Origin: a phage | Sequence record: PZ452579.1 | Reading direction: 5' to 3' (one strand) | Length of the DNA stretch: 64,000 bases | Part shown: piece by piece, positions 3,831 to 63,360 of the stretch | How positions within the stretch are numbered: position 1 is the first letter of the stretch | Layout: the number at the start of each line of letters is the position of its first letter | Notes under the pieces: generated by a model | Databases searched by the model: none | Told to the model about the DNA's origin: nothing | What the model saw: only the letters and a program-made list of their open reading frames with translations | Made by a program: the position numbers and the translations under genes

Positions 3831-4412
3831 CTAAAAATTCAACATTTTCAAATGAATGATTTTGTATAATCGAGATAAAGGGTCATATTCTAAGTCTTCA
3901 ATTTCCACAATCTCAAATCGAGAGATGCCTGAGACCATGTACTCTTGTTCAGATTCAATCATATCTAGGACGTCAACACGCGTTTCTTCCATAACATGCT
4001 TAGGGTTCTTTCCGGCAAGTACAATGTTAATCATGTTTTGGTAGTAATCAAAAATGAATGGAGCATTCCTGAGACTAAGAATAGTGTACGTCTGATATTC
4101 CCATCTCCCGGAGAATTGACGAGCTGTACTGAAATCAGTTGTGAACGATGTTACTCGTCCAGGAGACCAATGGCATCCAACAGAAAGAAGGGAAAGACGT
4201 TCTACTTCTTCTGGAGTTACACCACGGTAGAGTTCTACTGGTACTGTAGAAGTCATATGCTTACGAACAAGATGGTCTAATTCATAGTGGAAATCCGGGT
4301 CTTCCTTAGAATCGGTGCAAGCCCAGAGAATGTTTTGTTCTTGGCGGGTGAATTTGCTATCAATCAGATTTGTTAGGTATTCGCGTTCTTGAAGTTCAGA
4401 TTGACATGTCAT
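3831..4412 (-). CDS. modB: ADP-ribosyltransferase, ModB-like
   Basis: 193 aa; paralogous to preceding ORF with LYRG, SFTTDFS and ExE-type motifs. Confidence 0.7.
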   Translation of the reverse strand: MTCQSELQEREYLTNLIDSKFTRQEQNILWACTDSKEDPDFHYELDHLVRKHMTSTVPVELYRGVTPEEVERLSLLSVGCHWSPGRVTSFTTDFSTARQFSGRWEYQTYTILSLRNAPFIFDYYQNMINIVLAGKNPKHVMEETRVDVLDMIESEQEYMVSGISRFEIVEIEDLEYDPLSRLYKIIHLKMLNF

Positions 4413-4809
4413 GATAGACCTCCATTTAAAGATAAGCCTATCATAACATGAGAGGAGGGAATGTAAACTACTTTTTAAGCTTTCCTACTAAAGGTCCATC
4501 AGGGCCAGGTTGTTCTAACATGAATAAGGACGCTTTAAAAAGCAATGTCAACCCTTTCACCATTCGATACCATGTCTCAAAGTCTTTTTCCTTGATTTCT
4601 AGTAAGAATTTCTCTTTAAATTTCTCTTTCATTTCCAAGGACTCCATGGTGGAGGGTCGTCATAATAAGAGGCAAGGTCTTTCAGGGCTTCAACAGGTAA
4701 ACTAAAGCCGTGTCGTTGTATAATACTATCTAGTTCATCAACAAGTTCACTACGATGCACTTTAGGAGCCTCAACTTCAGGCTCGTCAAACATACTCATA
4801 AGGTCCATA

Positions 4810-57326: not shown

Positions 57327-57785
57327 TTATAGGAGGGTAGTGAGCACCTTATATAATGATTTGCCCATTACATATTCCCATTGAGAAGGTTTAATTAAAG
57401 CGAATGCATCAAATTCAGGAATCTGTCGTCCGTCTGGGAATGTATGATAGGAATTACAAACACTGTTTCTGAATTGCTCGTGCTCTACAGGGATGGTATA
57501 TTGGAACAGATGAATATTCTTATTGTCTGAGTAATGATGTTCACCTAGGTCTTTCAGGAAGGCAGGGTCATATTGTGTAAACCCAGTTTCTTCTTCGCAT
57601 TCACGAATAGCGGCTTCAATAGGAGATTCGCCAGGTTCGACACGGCCTTTAGGAATATCCCACCGATGAGCTAATGCACCTTTAGGACGAGAACCAGTTA
57701 CACGCCCCATGAATAATTCTTTATCTTCGGTAAGGAAAATAATACCGGCTGATAGTTCTTTCACTTTATTTTTCTTACTCATCAT
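57327..57785 (-). CDS. nudE: Nudix hydrolase NudE
   Basis: 152 aa; Nudix box GRVEPGESPIEAAIRECEEETGF. Confidence 0.8.
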   Translation of the reverse strand: MMSKKNKVKELSAGIIFLTEDKELFMGRVTGSRPKGALAHRWDIPKGRVEPGESPIEAAIRECEEETGFTQYDPAFLKDLGEHHYSDNKNIHLFQYTIPVEHEQFRNSVCNSYHTFPDGRQIPEFDAFALIKPSQWEYVMGKSLYKVLTTLL

Positions 57786-58026
57786 CTCGGTCCCATGATT
57801 TGGCCATTAATTCGGACATAAATTCTTCAATACGCGTTTCTTTAGATGGACTTTCACTATTAGAGACCGCAAGTTTGTAATCTGCAATAGGACAGAACAT
57901 ATCAAGGTCCATATTAAGGTCGTCTTTGATTTTTTCTTCTGACACATCTTTATCGTATGTGTACAGATAACTATCACATGATTCTGATTTAATGTAAATT
58001 GCTATACTCATCTCAAATTCCTGCAT
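57775..58026 (-). CDS. Hypothetical acidic protein
   Basis: 83-aa ORF. Confidence 0.45.
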   Translation of the reverse strand: MQEFEMSIAIYIKSESCDSYLYTYDKDVSEEKIKDDLNMDLDMFCPIADYKLAVSNSESPSKETRIEEFMSELMAKSWDRDDE

Positions 58027-58487
58027 TCGGTAATAAAACGTTCAACTTCATTATTCTTGGCTTTTATCTTGTCTTTATGTTCTTGTAAACTACTTTTAAC
58101 AAGATTAATAATGATGCCTACAGCACCTCCACCAATAATACCACCAATAATACTTACGATAGTAGATGCTAATACGATAGCGATAATATCTAGTACAGCA
58201 AAGGCACTTACTTTAGTACTAAAAAACCATACCGACGGTACAAATATAATCCATCCTGTTATCCATTGACACTTATTGAAAAACTTTTCAAGCTCAGCTT
58301 GAGTTGTTCGTATTACTTCATCGATAGGTTGATATCCATTAATGTATCTGTTCACGATAATACCTGCTGGCTGGTCGATTTTAAATTCTTGGCAAATATG
58401 TTTCACTAAGTAGGATGGACATCCTGTCCAATCTACTGAATAATACGAAATACCTTCGTTGCCATCATCTATATTATTGTTAATCAT
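58008..58487 (-). CDS. Membrane protein
   Basis: 159 aa; central hydrophobic segments with glycine-zipper-like IIGGIIGGGAVGII. Confidence 0.5.
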   Translation of the reverse strand: MINNNIDDGNEGISYYSVDWTGCPSYLVKHICQEFKIDQPAGIIVNRYINGYQPIDEVIRTTQAELEKFFNKCQWITGWIIFVPSVWFFSTKVSAFAVLDIIAIVLASTIVSIIGGIIGGGAVGIIINLVKSSLQEHKDKIKAKNNEVERFITECRNLR

Positions 58488-59173
58488 TACCAGCCTTCCA
58501 TAGGGAATTCCAGATAAACTTGAGCGTTGACACGAATTTCATTGGTAATCTTTTTAACTCGGTCTGTATTACGAGATACACGCCCGAACCAACGCCATCC
58601 ATTACTAATTGCACGAGAACCAGTGTGCCATGTTTGCCAATCAAACTGAAGAAGAGTACGGTCTGGAGCTTCCCATTTCTCTAGTTCGCCTTTTTCGATT
58701 TTTTCGAGGACTTCTTTGTGCCACTGACGATAGATAAGTTCGCCATCAGGAATCTGACTGAACTCTGCAGTTCCTGTTGCAAAATGAGTAGGACACACAT
58801 CAGCGTTAACAAGACCAAGAATATGTTCAGAATGGTAACGAGGGTTGTCATAATCAGGTTGTCCTGCAGTAATAAAGTGTTGACCAACCGGAATATCCGG
58901 GCGTGGTACATCGTCATGGTGATATCCAGGAATAGCAGGGTACCAACCAGGCATCAGCATGTGGACTCGTGAATCAAATACAACCTGGTCGGTGTTCCAA
59001 TCATCCGGCAAGTTCATGATAAAGCTACGAGTAATTGGGCCGCCATTATCAAAAGCAAAATTCAAATCGCAGTTAAAGAACATAGGCTCGTTTTTAATCT
59101 GGTCGTTTTTAATCGCATGAGCAAAACCACCTACTGCACGAGCTTGACTATTAAACACTTTAGAACTATTCAT
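58487..59173 (-). CDS. Hypothetical protein
   Basis: 228-aa ORF. Confidence 0.5.
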   Translation of the reverse strand: MNSSKVFNSQARAVGGFAHAIKNDQIKNEPMFFNCDLNFAFDNGGPITRSFIMNLPDDWNTDQVVFDSRVHMLMPGWYPAIPGYHHDDVPRPDIPVGQHFITAGQPDYDNPRYHSEHILGLVNADVCPTHFATGTAEFSQIPDGELIYRQWHKEVLEKIEKGELEKWEAPDRTLLQFDWQTWHTGSRAISNGWRWFGRVSRNTDRVKKITNEIRVNAQVYLEFPMEGW

Positions 59174-59174
59174 A

Positions 59175-59480
59175 TTATTTTCCTCGACATTCTTTAATGA
59201 AATTTTCTAGATTGGTAGATTCAATAGCTTTTTTACGAGCTTCTGCGTGTTCTTCTTCAGACAATTTACGTTTATAATTGACCCAGACATTATGGTCGAA
59301 ACTAGTCGTGGCATATAATAACAAAGCTCCGACGAATAATAAAAACGGTGATAAGAATACAAAACCAGGAACACCATCCATACTGTAAGCCTTTTGTAAT
59401 ACTGCAACAGAAAGAGTTGCGTAAAAAAGTGATGCAAATATTGTTAAAAGACCAATTCGGTTGGTTTCGCCTAATTTCAT
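59175..59480 (-). CDS. Membrane protein
   Basis: 101 aa, two TM. Confidence 0.5.
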   Translation of the reverse strand: MKLGETNRIGLLTIFASLFYATLSVAVLQKAYSMDGVPGFVFLSPFLLFVGALLLYATTSFDHNVWVNYKRKLSEEEHAEARKKAIESTNLENFIKECRGK

Positions 59481-59550
59481 AATATTCTCCTCATGTTTTA
59501 ATAGGACTACTATAACATAATCCTATAATTGTGTAAACAGTTTTGCGAAA

Positions 59551-60507
59551 TTATTTGAAAGGTTTTACCATATGGAAATTTTGTTTGAAACGTTTGACGT
59601 AATCGTCATGTCCTAAGCTTTGGTACATACTTACTACTTTGCTGTAGTTTTCCCAGGCATACTCACGGAACCAACCGGAGGTGATGCTTGTACAGACTTT
59701 TTCCAATGCCATCATGAAACTGGCTTCAGGGTTAATTTTAAAGTCATTAGGAATTTGAGAACGTTCTAATGCTAGTACACATGATTCTTCGTATACACCA
59801 GCCAGTTTAATCATTTCCGGTAACGATTCGAACTTCTCGCGTGAGGTCATGACTTCAGAACCGTCTTTCATATAAAATGTATACGCTGGACGGTCTGTTA
59901 GTGCAATGGCTTCGTGAATAGTATCATGGTCATATGTATAGATGTCATCTTTAAAGAACGCACTTTTAGAAGTGTCAAGAACTGGGTGAGCATAGTTCAA
60001 GGTTTCTTTCTGGCGTTTCAGCATAATTTCAGTAAGTTCATCGTTCAGTGTAACACCTTTACCACGAAGATACTGAATATGGTTCATAGTCTTTAAAAAG
60101 AATGGATTATTTTTCTTGAAACGATGAGACATCTTAATTGCAAGACATATCTCAGGAGTTGCCCAGTAAAACCCGTTCAAACGGTCTTTAGTCAAATTTT
60201 TCTTGGCGTATTTTAAAAGGTCATAAGAAGACGTGAAATCTTCGGGAGTGAGTTCACCAACTAATTCACGGACATTAGTGATTGCCGGAACAATATATGC
60301 TTCAAAATGAGTTTCGCGTCCATTATGGAAGCATTTGAAAACTTGGACATCAGGGTTATCTTGGTGGACATATACACCCATCATTTGATTTTTGAATGCA
60401 TTCCAAGAACATTGGTCCGCAATAAAGTCCCAGTCACTATTTTTGATAGCGCTAGAATCAATAAGACCATGATAGTGAAGTGCACGAGAACCAATAACTA
60501 ACATCAT
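59551..60507 (-). CDS. Hypothetical protein
   Basis: 318-aa ORF. Confidence 0.5.
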   Translation of the reverse strand: MMLVIGSRALHYHGLIDSSAIKNSDWDFIADQCSWNAFKNQMMGVYVHQDNPDVQVFKCFHNGRETHFEAYIVPAITNVRELVGELTPEDFTSSYDLLKYAKKNLTKDRLNGFYWATPEICLAIKMSHRFKKNNPFFLKTMNHIQYLRGKGVTLNDELTEIMLKRQKETLNYAHPVLDTSKSAFFKDDIYTYDHDTIHEAIALTDRPAYTFYMKDGSEVMTSREKFESLPEMIKLAGVYEESCVLALERSQIPNDFKINPEASFMMALEKVCTSITSGWFREYAWENYSKVVSMYQSLGHDDYVKRFKQNFHMVKPFK

Positions 60508-60535
60508 AATATTTTCCTCGGATTAATTCATTAAC

Positions 60536-60787
60536 TTAAATTTCACGACATGCGATATTATATTCATCCCAGAGGTCATCATGTGAAGCCTCTACCAATG
60601 GAACGATTGTACCGTTTATGTCTTCATTATAAGGGCAAATTGTACAGTGCGCATCTTCGAATCGGATGCCTTTGTGTTCAGATTTTTTATAACGCATATC
60701 GAATATCTTTGCAAACTTTTCACGAGTAATGGTTTTAGCAACCACTTCGGTTCCAATACTTTCGTAATAAATCATTGTGGACTCCAT
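60536..60787 (-). CDS. Hypothetical Cys/His-containing small protein
   Basis: 83-aa ORF. Confidence 0.45.
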   Translation of the reverse strand: MESTMIYYESIGTEVVAKTITREKFAKIFDMRYKKSEHKGIRFEDAHCTICPYNEDINGTIVPLVEASHDDLWDEYNIACREI

Positions 60788-60837
60788 TTAATTTGATAGG
60801 ACTACTATAACATAGCCCTATCTTGTTGTAAACTGTT

Positions 60838-61035
60838 TTAGCAAGAATAACTAGATGATACCCAGCCTTGAACAGTAATACTATTATTTGATAACGAGAT
60901 TGCGTCCTGGAGATTCAGACCTGCGTTATCTTCAATCCATAATGTAACTTCTTCGCGTTCTTCTGTTGCAATTTGGAACAGGTTTTCCAGAGCAGCTACT
61001 GCCGTACGTACAGCACAATCTAATTCACGAGACAT
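60838..61035 (-). CDS. Small protein, WVSSSxxC C-terminal family (paralog 1)
   Basis: 65 aa ending QGWVSSSYSC. Confidence 0.5.
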   Translation of the reverse strand: MSRELDCAVRTAVAALENLFQIATEEREEVTLWIEDNAGLNLQDAISLSNNSITVQGWVSSSYSC

Positions 61036-61044
61036 ATGGTTTCC

Positions 61045-61317
61045 TTAGCAAGTGTGAGAAGATGCAACCCAACCGCCATCTTCAAGGCTCAAGTTGTAGT
61101 CGTATTGGTAAACGTCAGCCCATTCAGCATAGCCGTTTTTTGTACAACGTTCAAGATCGGCTTTAAGATGTCCGGGTGAATGATAGGTTCCACCCATACC
61201 ATAAGCTGGATACAAGTCGAATGTTGTGTTTTGTTTATCAGCAATTTCTTTGGCGGCCTCAATAGCTGCATAGATTTTTGCTACAGCTTCAGCCAGTTCG
61301 GTTTGTTCTTTAGACAT
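61045..61317 (-). CDS. Small protein, WVSSSxxC C-terminal family (paralog 2)
   Basis: 90 aa ending GGWVASSHTC. Confidence 0.5.
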   Translation of the reverse strand: MSKEQTELAEAVAKIYAAIEAAKEIADKQNTTFDLYPAYGMGGTYHSPGHLKADLERCTKNGYAEWADVYQYDYNLSLEDGGWVASSHTC

Positions 61318-61326
61318 AATAATTCC

Positions 61327-61632
61327 TTAGCACAACGCAGAAGACGAAACCCAAGCACCTTCAGTAATAACGTAACCATTACCTTCACGCTTAACATCGC
61401 CACCATTATTTTCAATTTCATCTTTCATCCACTGGGATACGATTTCACCCTTAGGATAATAAGTACGACCGCTACCATAATCACCTACAGAAAATGATAC
61501 GGCATATTGGTCTGCGATCTTTGTTGCTTCTTCTTCGATACGTTCAGCTTGATTCAGAAGTTTATAAATTGCATCTGAAGCGGATTTGGCATCATTAAAC
61601 TCTGGCACTTTAATTTCAATAATCTTACTCAT
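61327..61632 (-). CDS. Small protein, WVSSSxxC C-terminal family (paralog 3)
   Basis: 101 aa ending GAWVSSSALC. Confidence 0.5.
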   Translation of the reverse strand: MSKIIEIKVPEFNDAKSASDAIYKLLNQAERIEEEATKIADQYAVSFSVGDYGSGRTYYPKGEIVSQWMKDEIENNGGDVKREGNGYVITEGAWVSSSALC

Positions 61633-61730
61633 TTTCTACATTCCTTAATAAAGTTTTCGATTGTTTCATTTTCACGTTTAGCTAGGAGTTCATTATAACT
61701 AATCATTTGAGAAGCGTAAACAGCATAAAT

Positions 61731-62153
61731 TCAGTTCAGGCTTTTGCATCTTATCTCCTTAACGAATTCCATGGCTTCGTCATATTCATACTTTTTAACA
61801 GCTTCATCATACTGAGCTTGGGCTTTTGCACATTGAATTTTCCATTCGCGTACTCGAGCTCTATAATGACGTCCTTGGTACCAATATCCCACCCAATTAA
61901 TAGGCATTAATAAAAATGGCACAATAAACGACCCGGCTATAATAAGTAAAAACACTGCATCAGACGATATAACTTCACTAGAATCTAAAACAGCTCCTAT
62001 AATCATAAGGATTAAAAATGCTAAAGCTAAAATAGGGCCAAATAGTACTTCGTTTGGGATTAATTTACGTTTGTATTCGTATGCCCAGGGCTTAATTGGC
62101 ATGTACAGGGTTGGCTTTGACATATTCTCTACATTCCATAATAAATTGCTCAA
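61731..62153 (-). CDS. Membrane protein
   Basis: 140 aa, two TM. Confidence 0.5.
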   Translation of the reverse strand: MSNLLWNVENMSKPTLYMPIKPWAYEYKRKLIPNEVLFGPILALAFLILMIIGAVLDSSEVISSDAVFLLIIAGSFIVPFLLMPINWVGYWYQGRHYRARVREWKIQCAKAQAQYDEAVKKYEYDEAMEFVKEIRCKSLN

Positions 62154-62715
62154 GGATTAAATTGTTAGTGAAATTAGGACTAACAACCATAGTTTCATAA
62201 AGCGCATCAATAGCACTTAAAGCATCAACTCTTTTAAGCAAAGGCTTGCCTTCATACATAGTTTCAGAATCGATGATTAACGTAAAGTAATATTTTTTAT
62301 TATCGACTAGAACTTCTGTATCAATATAAAACATATTAGACCTCAGAAGCTTATCTCTAAAACCATAATAATCTTTAGAGCGTTCGCTGATATATTCCCA
62401 TTCAGTGTTTAAACAACAAACAGACCATGTAGGAGCAACGAAATCGGTGAATCTAATATCATGGTCTGCAACTAGTTTAGCAATAGCTCCGATATCATGA
62501 ATCATAATACCTGGGGCTAATAAAGATTTTCTGCTATGGCTAGCCGTTTTCTCAGTAGTCTCATAAGAAGACGACCAGTACCATTTACGTCCAGTTGCAA
62601 CATATCGTAATGAATCAACTAAAGACGTAGGTGGATTTACCTTATCTCGGAACTCTTCGAACATTGAGTCAATATCATTATTTTGGTTTCGCATGTTAAC
62701 TCCTTTATTATCCAA
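62092..62715 (-). CDS. Hypothetical protein
   Basis: 207-aa ORF; true start probably internal. Confidence 0.45.
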   Translation of the reverse strand: MDNKGVNMRNQNNDIDSMFEEFRDKVNPPTSLVDSLRYVATGRKWYWSSSYETTEKTASHSRKSLLAPGIMIHDIGAIAKLVADHDIRFTDFVAPTWSVCCLNTEWEYISERSKDYYGFRDKLLRSNMFYIDTEVLVDNKKYYFTLIIDSETMYEGKPLLKRVDALSAIDALYETMVVSPNFTNNLILEQFIMECREYVKANPVHAN

Positions 62716-62743
62716 AAGGAGGACCGGAGTCCTCCGTATTATT

Positions 62744-63337
62744 TTATTTCAAAGAGTTAATATATTCTTGTACATCAGCAGAAGTGGTTTCGACACCGGC
62801 TGGAGTGCCATTGAACGTTTCAACACGAGTCAGAGTGTCTTCGATATCAACCTTAGTCAGTGCAGCGATTTCAATTACATCATCAGCCGTAGAGATACCA
62901 AGGGCATTGGCTGCTCGAGTTTCACGAATGTATTCGAGTTTGATTGCCAGGTTCTGACGAGCATCGTCAAGTTCAACCACCTTACGAGCAATTTCAATTC
63001 GCATAGCGGCATACCCGTCAGCTTTTGTATTAAGTTGTTCGGCAGTTCGACGATACAGAAGACCAAGCTTAGCATGCATGGTAACATCTTGTCCTTCGGC
63101 CAGGAGCTTACGAATTTCACGTTCCTTAGAAGCGGCTTGCTTGTTCTTTTCATTAACAAGTTCGCGAATACGTTTTTCTTCATTAATAGATTTAACAGAA
63201 GCCGTTTTTAGTTCTTTGATTTGGGTAATCAACTTATCTGCAGCTGCGTTATACTGTTCTTCGACAGTCAGATTTTTAGCCATAGCAGTACCCAGTTTAG
63301 TGCGGATGAATTCAACAAGTTTCTTCAGTGTGTTCAT
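62744..63337 (-). CDS. Coiled-coil protein (possibly PspA/IM30-like)
   Basis: About 197 aa, predominantly heptad-like helical sequence; promoter cassette 63361..63405 upstream. Confidence 0.5.
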
Positions 63338-63360
63338 ATTATTACCTTTCAATTGGTGGT

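Follow-up and report, generated by a model that had tools for sequence, protein, structure and literature searches.

A 64,000-nt stretch of phage DNA from the record PZ452579.1, here called the window, carries three consecutive small open reading frames (ORFs), ORF1, ORF2 and ORF3, whose products end in the same short peptide. Downstream on the same strand lies a gene for a 318-amino-acid (aa) protein with a predicted nucleotidyltransferase fold. Judged from sequence comparisons, the ending, eight residues of the form W-x-[S/A/P]-S-S-x-x-Cys-COOH, behaves as a portable C-terminal tag that is present on at least 14 sequence clusters. The linkage of the tag genes to the enzyme gene is oriented and near-obligate. 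Together the tailed genes and the downstream nucleotidyltransferase-like gene suggest an undescribed tag-plus-enzyme pair. The tag is very likely the element through which the small proteins meet the enzyme, presumably by physical docking. A fuller model is favored only tentatively: the tag would couple a variable set of small acidic phage proteins to the enzyme by docking and by nucleotidylation of a serine. The model is built on the tag and its conservation, the oriented gene linkage, a nucleotidyltransferase fold with catalytic-type residues, and a correspondence between certain enzyme residues and the presence of the tag.

The tailed ORFs, their tags and the partner enzyme gene are arranged as follows.

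61327..61632, minus strand: ORF3, 101 aa, phrog_899, of the main family with the pattern YG-x-G-x-TYYP ... W-x-S-S-S-x-x-C; ends in GAWVSSSALC
61327..61353, minus strand: C-terminal tag of ORF3, W-V-S-S-S-A-L-C, with the stop codon
61045..61317, minus strand: ORF2, 90 aa, phrog_899, paralog of ORF3; ends in GGWVASSHTC
61045..61071, minus strand: C-terminal tag of ORF2, W-V-A-S-S-H-T-C, with the stop codon
60838..61035, minus strand: ORF1, 65 aa, phrog_4882; ends in QGWVSSSYSC, the tail being all that it has in common with ORF2 and ORF3
60838..60864, minus strand: C-terminal tag of ORF1, W-V-S-S-S-Y-S-C, with the stop codon
59551..60507, minus strand: partner enzyme, 318 aa, consisting of DUF7277 (N-terminal, pol-beta nucleotidyltransferase fold) and a helical DUF7275

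The three tailed ORFs follow one another head to tail. When all six frames of the window are scanned for W..SS..C directly before a stop codon, these three are the only hits, which confirms the G-W-V-S/A-S-S-x-x-C ending that a preliminary description of this DNA had assigned to three consecutive ORFs. The same description took them for three tandem paralogs, which holds for ORF2 and ORF3 but not for ORF1. ORF2 and ORF3 align by BLASTP with E=1e-6 over 73 residues and both match phrog_899 (E=4.8e-19 and 1.3e-22), while ORF1 matches phrog_4882 (E=1.1e-36); each of the two families is annotated "unknown function". The alignments of ORF1 with ORF2 and ORF3 reach only E=3e-4 and 6e-4, and they end in the tail. 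Once the last 10 residues were taken off, no relationship was detected: hmmsearch gave E=0.22 for ORF1 and 0.026 for the best ORF1-type relative, and an hhalign comparison of ORF1 with the ORF2/ORF3 family gave a probability of 3%. By sequence, then, ORF2 and ORF3 are true paralogs and ORF1 is an unrelated-looking protein with the same tail. Because ORF1 shares the tail alone with the other two, the tail behaves as a portable tag.

A family profile was constructed from ORF2, ORF3 and four orthologs and scored against 1.84 billion representative proteins (E<=1e-3). It matched 202 representatives (50% identity clusters), almost all 68-143 aa long. Two long matches of the profile search are apparently false positives caused by repeats: the helicase-like P0126 (953 aa) and P0136 (1,446 aa), which has Ig-like repeats. 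The terminal residue is exactly Cys in 136 of 151 small homologs, and the chain ends in Cys plus one residue in 8 more. Counting back from the terminal Cys of these 136 homologs, W is found at -7 in 135, S at -4 in 135 and S at -3 in 134; position -5 is S, A or P in all but three, and a G is usual at -9 or -8. No column other than the W, the two S and the terminal C is invariant in an alignment of 87 sequences, whose mean column identity is 25%. The family has a common layout: an N-terminal amphipathic helix, A-E-x-I-A-D, F, Y-G-M/S-G-G/R-T-Y-Y-P, an acidic variable linker, and the tail. Some linkers contain extra copies of the motif, for instance RWESSSEGWESSSEGWVSSSSQC and DWDSSGCEWDNSGC. 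At the three Ser positions of 175 dereplicated tails all six Ser codons, TCN and AGY, are in use, so it is the peptide that is under selection, rather than an element in the DNA or RNA. This codon usage, together with the occurrence of only three copies in the six-frame scan, rules out chance or a DNA element as the origin of the tail.

The AlphaFold2 model of the 101-aa ORF3 protein is a compact alpha/beta domain with a predicted local distance difference test score (pLDDT) of 93.3. It has a long N-terminal helix (residues 15-43), and the tail is modeled as the last beta-strand and a short turn, with W-V-S placed in the strand at high confidence. The ORF3 ortholog of reference phage RB69 (P0002, RB69ORF139c) is only 71 aa long; its first 67 residues are identical to ORF3, after which it continues ...SQWYEK and has no tail. 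This reflects a frameshift or a sequencing error; if the short form is real, that copy is dispensable.

The tag is found well beyond these two families. When the tail was removed from 215 distinct tailed ORFs, the remaining sequences fell into 14 BLAST clusters. The main YGMGG family accounts for 160 of the 215, a "...DWNxSSCYGE...WxxSSC" family for 24 and the ORF1 type for 16; the other clusters are smaller, with proteins of 51-172 aa. The second of these families has an internal W-x-x-S-S-C-Y-G-E in addition to the terminal W-x-x-S-S-C. The motif can therefore be duplicated, with the internal copy lying off the terminus. Members with both copies are the following.

L006 2728-2961: Aeromonas phage 25 ORF058c
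L037 4709-4954
L077 4432-4677
L089 2098-2568

In one tailed protein of 172 aa (...DDSWSSSSMIC; L087 3512-4030), the N-terminal part is a WYL_2 Sm-like SH3 domain (PF10902), which scores 34.2 bits where the cut-off is 26.7. Thus the tag also occurs on a known ligand- or nucleic-acid-binding domain.

The gene linkage was measured from both sides; tailed ORFs were sought in the one 64-kb window and in +/-5 kb flanks of the loci. The enzyme-side sample consisted of 80 IMG/VR loci fetched through the 318-aa protein, with ORFs of at least 40 aa counted. The strict tail is confined in these loci to upstream same-strand ORFs, of which 151 out of 1,493 have it; none of the 1,480 downstream and 2,908 opposite-strand ORFs does (0/4,388 in total). 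With a relaxed tail that also admits W-x-x-S-S-C and W-x-S-S-x-C, tailed ORFs number one to five in 73 of the 80 loci, and the last of them is separated from the enzyme gene by a median of 352 nt. The tag-side sample was collected with a degenerate DNA pattern for YGMGGTY; about half of its 73 hits were unrelated and were removed by a hidden Markov model, leaving 41 loci. An enzyme gene lies downstream on the same strand in 30 of these, and the other 11 have less than 2.4 kb of downstream DNA. Since every enzyme-less locus ends within 2.4 kb, the tag-side sample holds no informative counter-example. The arrangement extends to a distant metagenomic family member, P0067 (116 aa), which has an enzyme homolog 56 nt downstream. 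It is also seen in Aeromonas phage 25, where a cassette of two tailed ORFs and a 301-aa enzyme homolog adjoins nrdD instead of gene e. When the enzymes were divided into 14 groups of <60% identity, the tailed families were the only recurring neighbors; everything else was lineage-specific.

Two other gene associations were seen at the enzyme loci. Jumbo-phage-type loci have a calcineurin-like metallophosphoesterase gene (Pfam Metallophos, 65 bits) about 1.1 kb downstream of the nucleotidyltransferase gene, as at L048 6198-6977 and 15 further loci in 3 enzyme groups. This protein could remove a phospho- or nucleotidyl modification, or its presence could be coincidental. The nucleotidyltransferase gene also often lies a few kb from phage tRNA clusters, for example in L094 (Gordonia phage Bachita), L091 (Pseudomonas phage phiK7A1) and L001 (moskry). 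This proximity may or may not be meaningful, the MenT relatives of the enzyme being proteins that act on tRNA 3' ends.

The 318-aa partner protein scores 96.7 bits with DUF7277 and 265.4 bits with DUF7275, both against cut-offs of 27. A Pfam scan at E<=0.1 returned these two families only, with no match to DUF1814, and searches of the PDB by sequence and by profile gave nothing informative, the profile search finding no MenT. Its AlphaFold2 model is confident (pLDDT 91.6), and in a fold search with this model the best PDB matches were all pol-beta nucleotidyltransferases, with MenT1 on top. MenT/AbiEii enzymes have four catalytic motifs: I, G-S/G; II, D-x-D; III, Lys; and IV, Asp (PMC10435456). 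Across 42 diverse sequences of the phage enzyme 58 residues are invariant, and they include G6-S7, D25-x-D27, E69, K125, H128, H194-D195, H198, E240-E241, E248-R249 and the stretch C272-T-S-I-T-S-G-W-F-R. K125, K139 and D195 are invariant and D193 nearly so; these are candidate counterparts of MenT motifs III and IV. The enzyme is thus, by its predicted structure, a bi-lobed pol-beta nucleotidyltransferase fold of the MenT/AbiEii kind with intact catalytic-type carboxylates and an added conserved domain. Identity with the RNA-repair nucleotidyltransferase RlaP (PMC7824862) was considered, and no Pfam match supported it.

The enzyme family is large, with 2,212 clusters at 90% identity and 734 phage records. 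Its carriers are T4-like phages of enterobacteria, Aeromonas and Acinetobacter, ~150-kb Escherichia and Klebsiella phages, ~95-kb Pseudomonas phages, and viral contigs of ~355-371 kb; the hosts named in the records include Escherichia, Klebsiella, Enterobacter, Aeromonas, Acinetobacter, Pseudomonas and Stenotrophomonas. Among bacteria and archaea, searched with one genome from each of 185,579 species, the enzyme was found on five contigs only, all of them from metagenome bins. The system is essentially phage-restricted, and because only these five contigs were found there is no cellular context to learn from.

Enzyme relatives that lack tagged neighbors differ from the tag-linked enzymes in a consistent way. 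The relatives in Streptomyces, Gordonia and Vibrio phages are shorter (248-263 aa), and no tail was found in the annotated ORFs translated immediately upstream of them. Three such tag-less relatives keep the catalytic-type residues, lack ~55 residues of the N-terminal domain, and depart from the tag-linked enzymes at 11 positions where the latter are invariant: T140, R165, Y172, H174, Y190, Y212, Y239, C243, C272, S277 and R281. With three sequences to compare, these 11 positions are candidate tag-recognition residues. A second tagless group (L052, L053, L055 and L078) has an enzyme of the tag-linked type. Two of these four loci have a split enzyme gene, and Q or E takes the place of the otherwise invariant D193. 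In L055 (4788-5714) and L078 (4686-5714), on phage contigs of ~141-153 kb, the nucleotidyltransferase gene is split or N-terminally truncated. Such decay of the enzyme in the tagless group is what functional dependence on the tags would predict.

In the model, the tag would dock on the enzyme and be recognized through its Trp and its free Cys terminus. The enzyme would then transfer a nucleoside monophosphate (NMP) from a nucleoside triphosphate to one of the two invariant serine hydroxyls in the tag. Nucleotidylation would covalently switch or mark the small proteins, which are probably early host-directed effectors. On this reading the tail is probably an acceptor site for the enzyme as well as a docking site. 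Pol-beta nucleotidyltransferases transfer NMP to hydroxyls, including those of protein side chains, as in the AMPylation of HEPN toxins by MNT. Serine nucleotidylation is favored because enzymes of the pol-beta type use hydroxyls, HEPN-MNT systems modify a partner protein, and the tag has two invariant serines. It is the likeliest single chemistry, although the chance that it is the correct one is put at somewhat below even. Stated more broadly, the loci may represent an undescribed phage system for tagging or modifying proteins, with an octapeptide on unrelated effectors and a MenT-like enzyme that acts through Ser nucleotidylation or through chemistry at the terminal Cys; the chance of this, too, is put at somewhat below even.

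The preliminary description had suggested that the shared ending reflects a shared C-terminal function, and had named lack of the motif in orthologs as an outcome that would speak against it. The motif is clearly conserved in orthologs: the tail is invariant in a divergent family, Cys is the exact C-terminus in 136 of the 151 small homologs, and the tail is present on otherwise unrelated proteins, all of which support a common function. Two of the forms proposed for that function, an interaction motif and a modification site, also gain support, jointly or singly. They can be given a concrete form, a site for the linked nucleotidyltransferase-fold enzyme, because a gene for such an enzyme almost always accompanies the tailed genes on their downstream side.

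Several observations weigh against docking with serine nucleotidylation. The ORF3 protein model is compact and includes the tail as its last beta-strand and short turn, and because the tail forms the last strand of a compact predicted domain the serines may be poorly accessible. The requirement for a terminal Cys is not explained by simple O-nucleotidylation, nor by any rival model, and no model explains why the spacing from Ser-Ser to Cys varies (SS-x-x-C, SS-x-C and SS-C). The MenT toxins, which are the closest structural relatives, have tRNA 3' ends and not proteins as their known substrates (PMC10435456). The truncated ORF3 ortholog in reference RB69 has lost the tail, so either that copy is dispensable or the sequence is in error. 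Finally, at locus L032 the enzyme is intact but the ~3.5 kb upstream of it contain no tailed ORF. The DNA just upstream of the L032 enzyme (~3900-4500) translates like tRNA genes, and an internal-head-protein-like ORF (MKTYQEFINE...) lies further upstream, which suggests that the cassette was replaced or displaced.

The most serious competitor, an unlikely one all the same, makes the enzyme the active agent, acting for example on tRNA or other RNA 3' ends as MenT does, with the small proteins as antitoxin-like inhibitors that plug its active site with their tails until it is needed. MenT1 is the top structural match of the enzyme, and the antitoxin MenA1, a 68-aa protein that is mainly one long helix, is encoded upstream and blocks the MenT1 active site (PMC10435456). 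The phage proteins resemble MenA1 in being small and acidic, in beginning with a long helix and in being encoded upstream, and the enzyme genes are often near tRNA gene clusters. However, one inhibitor would suffice, yet a locus may have up to five tailed ORFs of unrelated families. Antitoxins usually co-vary with their toxins, whereas here one short motif stays constant across enzymes of 38-99% identity. The invariant hydroxyl residues point instead to an acceptor role, and RB69 appears to tolerate the loss of one copy. A less probable arrangement has the small proteins as adaptors: the variable part of each would bind a distinct host target and the common tail would recruit the enzyme, so that host targets become nucleotidylated. 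The contrast between diverse variable regions and an invariant tail, the several tailed proteins per genome and the fusion of one tail to the ligand- or nucleic-acid-binding WYL_2 domain would all fit. But the variable parts are short (50-90 aa), the host partner is hypothetical, and an invariant Ser-Ser with a terminal Cys exceeds what a docking peptide usually needs.

The two remaining explanations are both improbable, and to much the same degree. The slightly better placed of them denies any functional connection: the tail would be just the last strand of the fold, or a metal- or ligand-binding cap, and the enzyme a neighbor by common inheritance in a hyperplastic region. AlphaFold2 does set W-V-S in the last beta-strand with high confidence, and small phage genes are often inherited in blocks. 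This is difficult to reconcile with a linkage that holds over 14 enzyme groups of <60% identity, several phage lineages, host genera and genome positions, with a tail on proteins that have no other detectable similarity, with 0/4,388 occurrences outside the upstream same-strand position, or with the systematic differences in enzyme residues between tag-linked and tag-less relatives. The other supposes a cross-link like those of ribosomally synthesized and post-translationally modified peptides (RiPPs): a nucleotidylated Ser would be eliminated to dehydroalanine and attacked by the Cys thiol, giving a C-terminal ring of the lanthionine or aminovinylcysteine (AviCys) type. The spacings S(-3)-x-x-C(0) and S(-4)...C(0) are common in lanthionine rings, and the tag fits them; tandem multi-copy "precursors" and internal motif repeats also resemble multi-precursor RiPP loci. 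The protein is, however, predicted to be folded rather than a leader with a floppy core, and variants with adjacent S-S-C cannot form the usual rings. In the 11 flanking ORFs (57775-63352) there is no Pfam match to LanB/M/KC/L/C/D, YcaO, radical SAM, protease or exporter families, and no neighbor family of RiPP enzyme type recurs across the 14 enzyme groups. A precursor-peptide-like arrangement, also raised in the preliminary description, is the weakest of its readings, given the folded ORF3 model (pLDDT 93) and the lack of a RiPP enzyme family in those ORFs.

Two further assignments of the tailed proteins were rejected. They could not be placed with ubiquitin-like or sulfur-carrier proteins (ThiS, MoaD, Pup-like), as judged by a beta-grasp fold, a C-terminal Gly-Gly (or Gln/Glu) and a nearby E1-like enzyme. 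An internal head protein reading, which came from neighboring annotations, was dropped because there is no capsid-targeting N-terminus and no other support.

The nearest known systems share parts of this arrangement. In MenAT1/AbiE, a type IV/VII toxin-antitoxin, a DUF1814 nucleotidyltransferase toxin has an upstream antitoxin gene; the phage system resembles it in predicted fold and gene order. The phage enzyme has no Pfam DUF1814 match and has an extra, highly conserved C-terminal DUF7275 domain. The phage loci encode one to five upstream proteins of several families with one invariant C-terminal tag, and are found in virulent phages, not in bacterial chromosomes. Type VII HEPN-MNT (HepT/MntA) loci likewise have a pol-beta nucleotidyltransferase gene beside a small partner gene. 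There the minimal nucleotidyltransferase (oligo)AMPylates its partner on a side-chain hydroxyl, the Tyr of the RX4HXY motif, which is the chemistry proposed for the phage tag. The phage partner, in contrast, is not a HEPN protein and matches no Pfam family, its candidate acceptor is a Ser in the C-terminal tag and not a Tyr, and the phage enzyme is three times larger.

RiPP loci, such as those for AviCys lanthipeptides and for lasso peptides whose C-terminal Ser is phosphorylated and further modified, also have tandem small genes beside one conserved enzyme gene. In these too a short C-terminal Ser/Cys motif, sometimes repeated, is the only conserved part. The phage products differ in being predicted folded domains of 65-170 aa, and no dehydratase, cyclase, decarboxylase, protease or exporter is present in the window flanks or as a recurring neighbor. 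Sorting-tag systems (LPXTG/sortase, PEP-CTERM/exosortase and the C-terminal domain of the type IX secretion system) follow the same logic of unrelated proteins with a short C-terminal tag and a dedicated enzyme. Unlike their substrates, the phage proteins have no transmembrane segment or signal peptide and are cytoplasmic and acidic, and the phage enzyme has a nucleotidyltransferase fold, not that of a transpeptidase.

The enzyme superfamily and the layout with a small upstream partner are already known from MenAT/AbiE and HEPN-MNT. The new elements are the portable tag with its terminal Cys, the presence of several partners per locus, the DUF7275 domain, and an occurrence limited to virulent phages. 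In the literature library that was searched, no paper dealt with DUF7275 or DUF7277, with the PHROG families or RB69 ORFs, or with such a tag. If the tag is the substrate or docking site of the enzyme, it would define a new protein-modification module in hundreds of sequenced phages; several of the phage groups that carry the enzyme are used in therapy. A role would be found for two Pfam domains of unknown function and for several "unknown function" PHROGs, and the MenT/AbiE fold would be extended from toxin-antitoxin defense to the phage side of the conflict. The pairing of enzyme and tag would itself be new, as would this way of regulating the early proteins of a phage, and an eight-residue tag with a dedicated enzyme could serve for site-specific protein labeling. 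The T4 genome as a whole contains neither a homolog of the enzyme nor a member of the family, and none of its frames is tailed; the order in the syntenic region is e.4-e.3-e.2-nudE. Its absence from T4 may explain why the system went unnoticed.

The phage of the window is a Mosigvirus (RB69-like, T4-type). Over 60500-62200 it shares 98.5% identity with Escherichia phage moskry, and at least 80% of this segment is matched at 95-99% identity by 137 phage records. According to the annotation of these records, the tailed ORFs occupy a variable block between T4-type e.4/e.5/e.6 and nudE/e, in which all genes are annotated "hypothetical protein". Each of ORF1 to ORF3 has a Shine-Dalgarno sequence (AAGGAA or TAAGGAA) 5-8 nt 5' of its ATG, and the TAA stop codons of ORF3 and ORF2 each form part of the TAAGGA of the following gene. 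All three products are acidic (isoelectric points 4.05, 4.68 and 4.60). The block contains these further features.

60536..60787, minus strand: 83-aa ORF, untagged, phrog_3723, between ORF1 and the enzyme gene
61692..61720, minus strand: sigma-70/T4-early-like promoter match, TTTACG-17-TATAAT, 5' of ORF3 (consensus match only)
60804..60832, minus strand: sigma-70-like promoter match, TTTACA-17-TG-TATAGT, 5' of the 83-aa ORF and the enzyme gene (consensus match only)

The 83-aa ORF is lineage-specific filler, present in one of the 14 enzyme groups. The promoter matches 5' of ORF3 and of the 83-aa ORF are weakly consistent with early expression; such matches are as numerous in the region as expected from shuffled sequence and so are weak evidence.

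In many Mosigvirus genomes an extra ORF of 119 aa separates ORF3 from the e.4 homolog (phage vB_Eco_F27, locus L002 5130-5489), and these genomes therefore align to the query as two pieces. T4 has e.3 (120 aa) at this place; the extra ORF is absent from the window (~61633-61730) and from moskry. Further upstream on the minus strand are an e.4-like ORF (61731-62153, 140 aa, with predicted membrane segments) and an e.5-like ORF (62092-62715, 207 aa) that overlap by 62 nt, as e.4 and e.5 likewise overlap in T4. The F27 record calls the e.4 homolog a "sulfurtransferase", for which family searches give no support. Between the e.6-like and e.5-like genes, at 62718-62735, the sequence GGAGGAC-CGGA-GTCCTCC forms a perfect GC-rich hairpin of 7 bp; together with T-runs on both strands it makes a terminator-like site readable in both directions.

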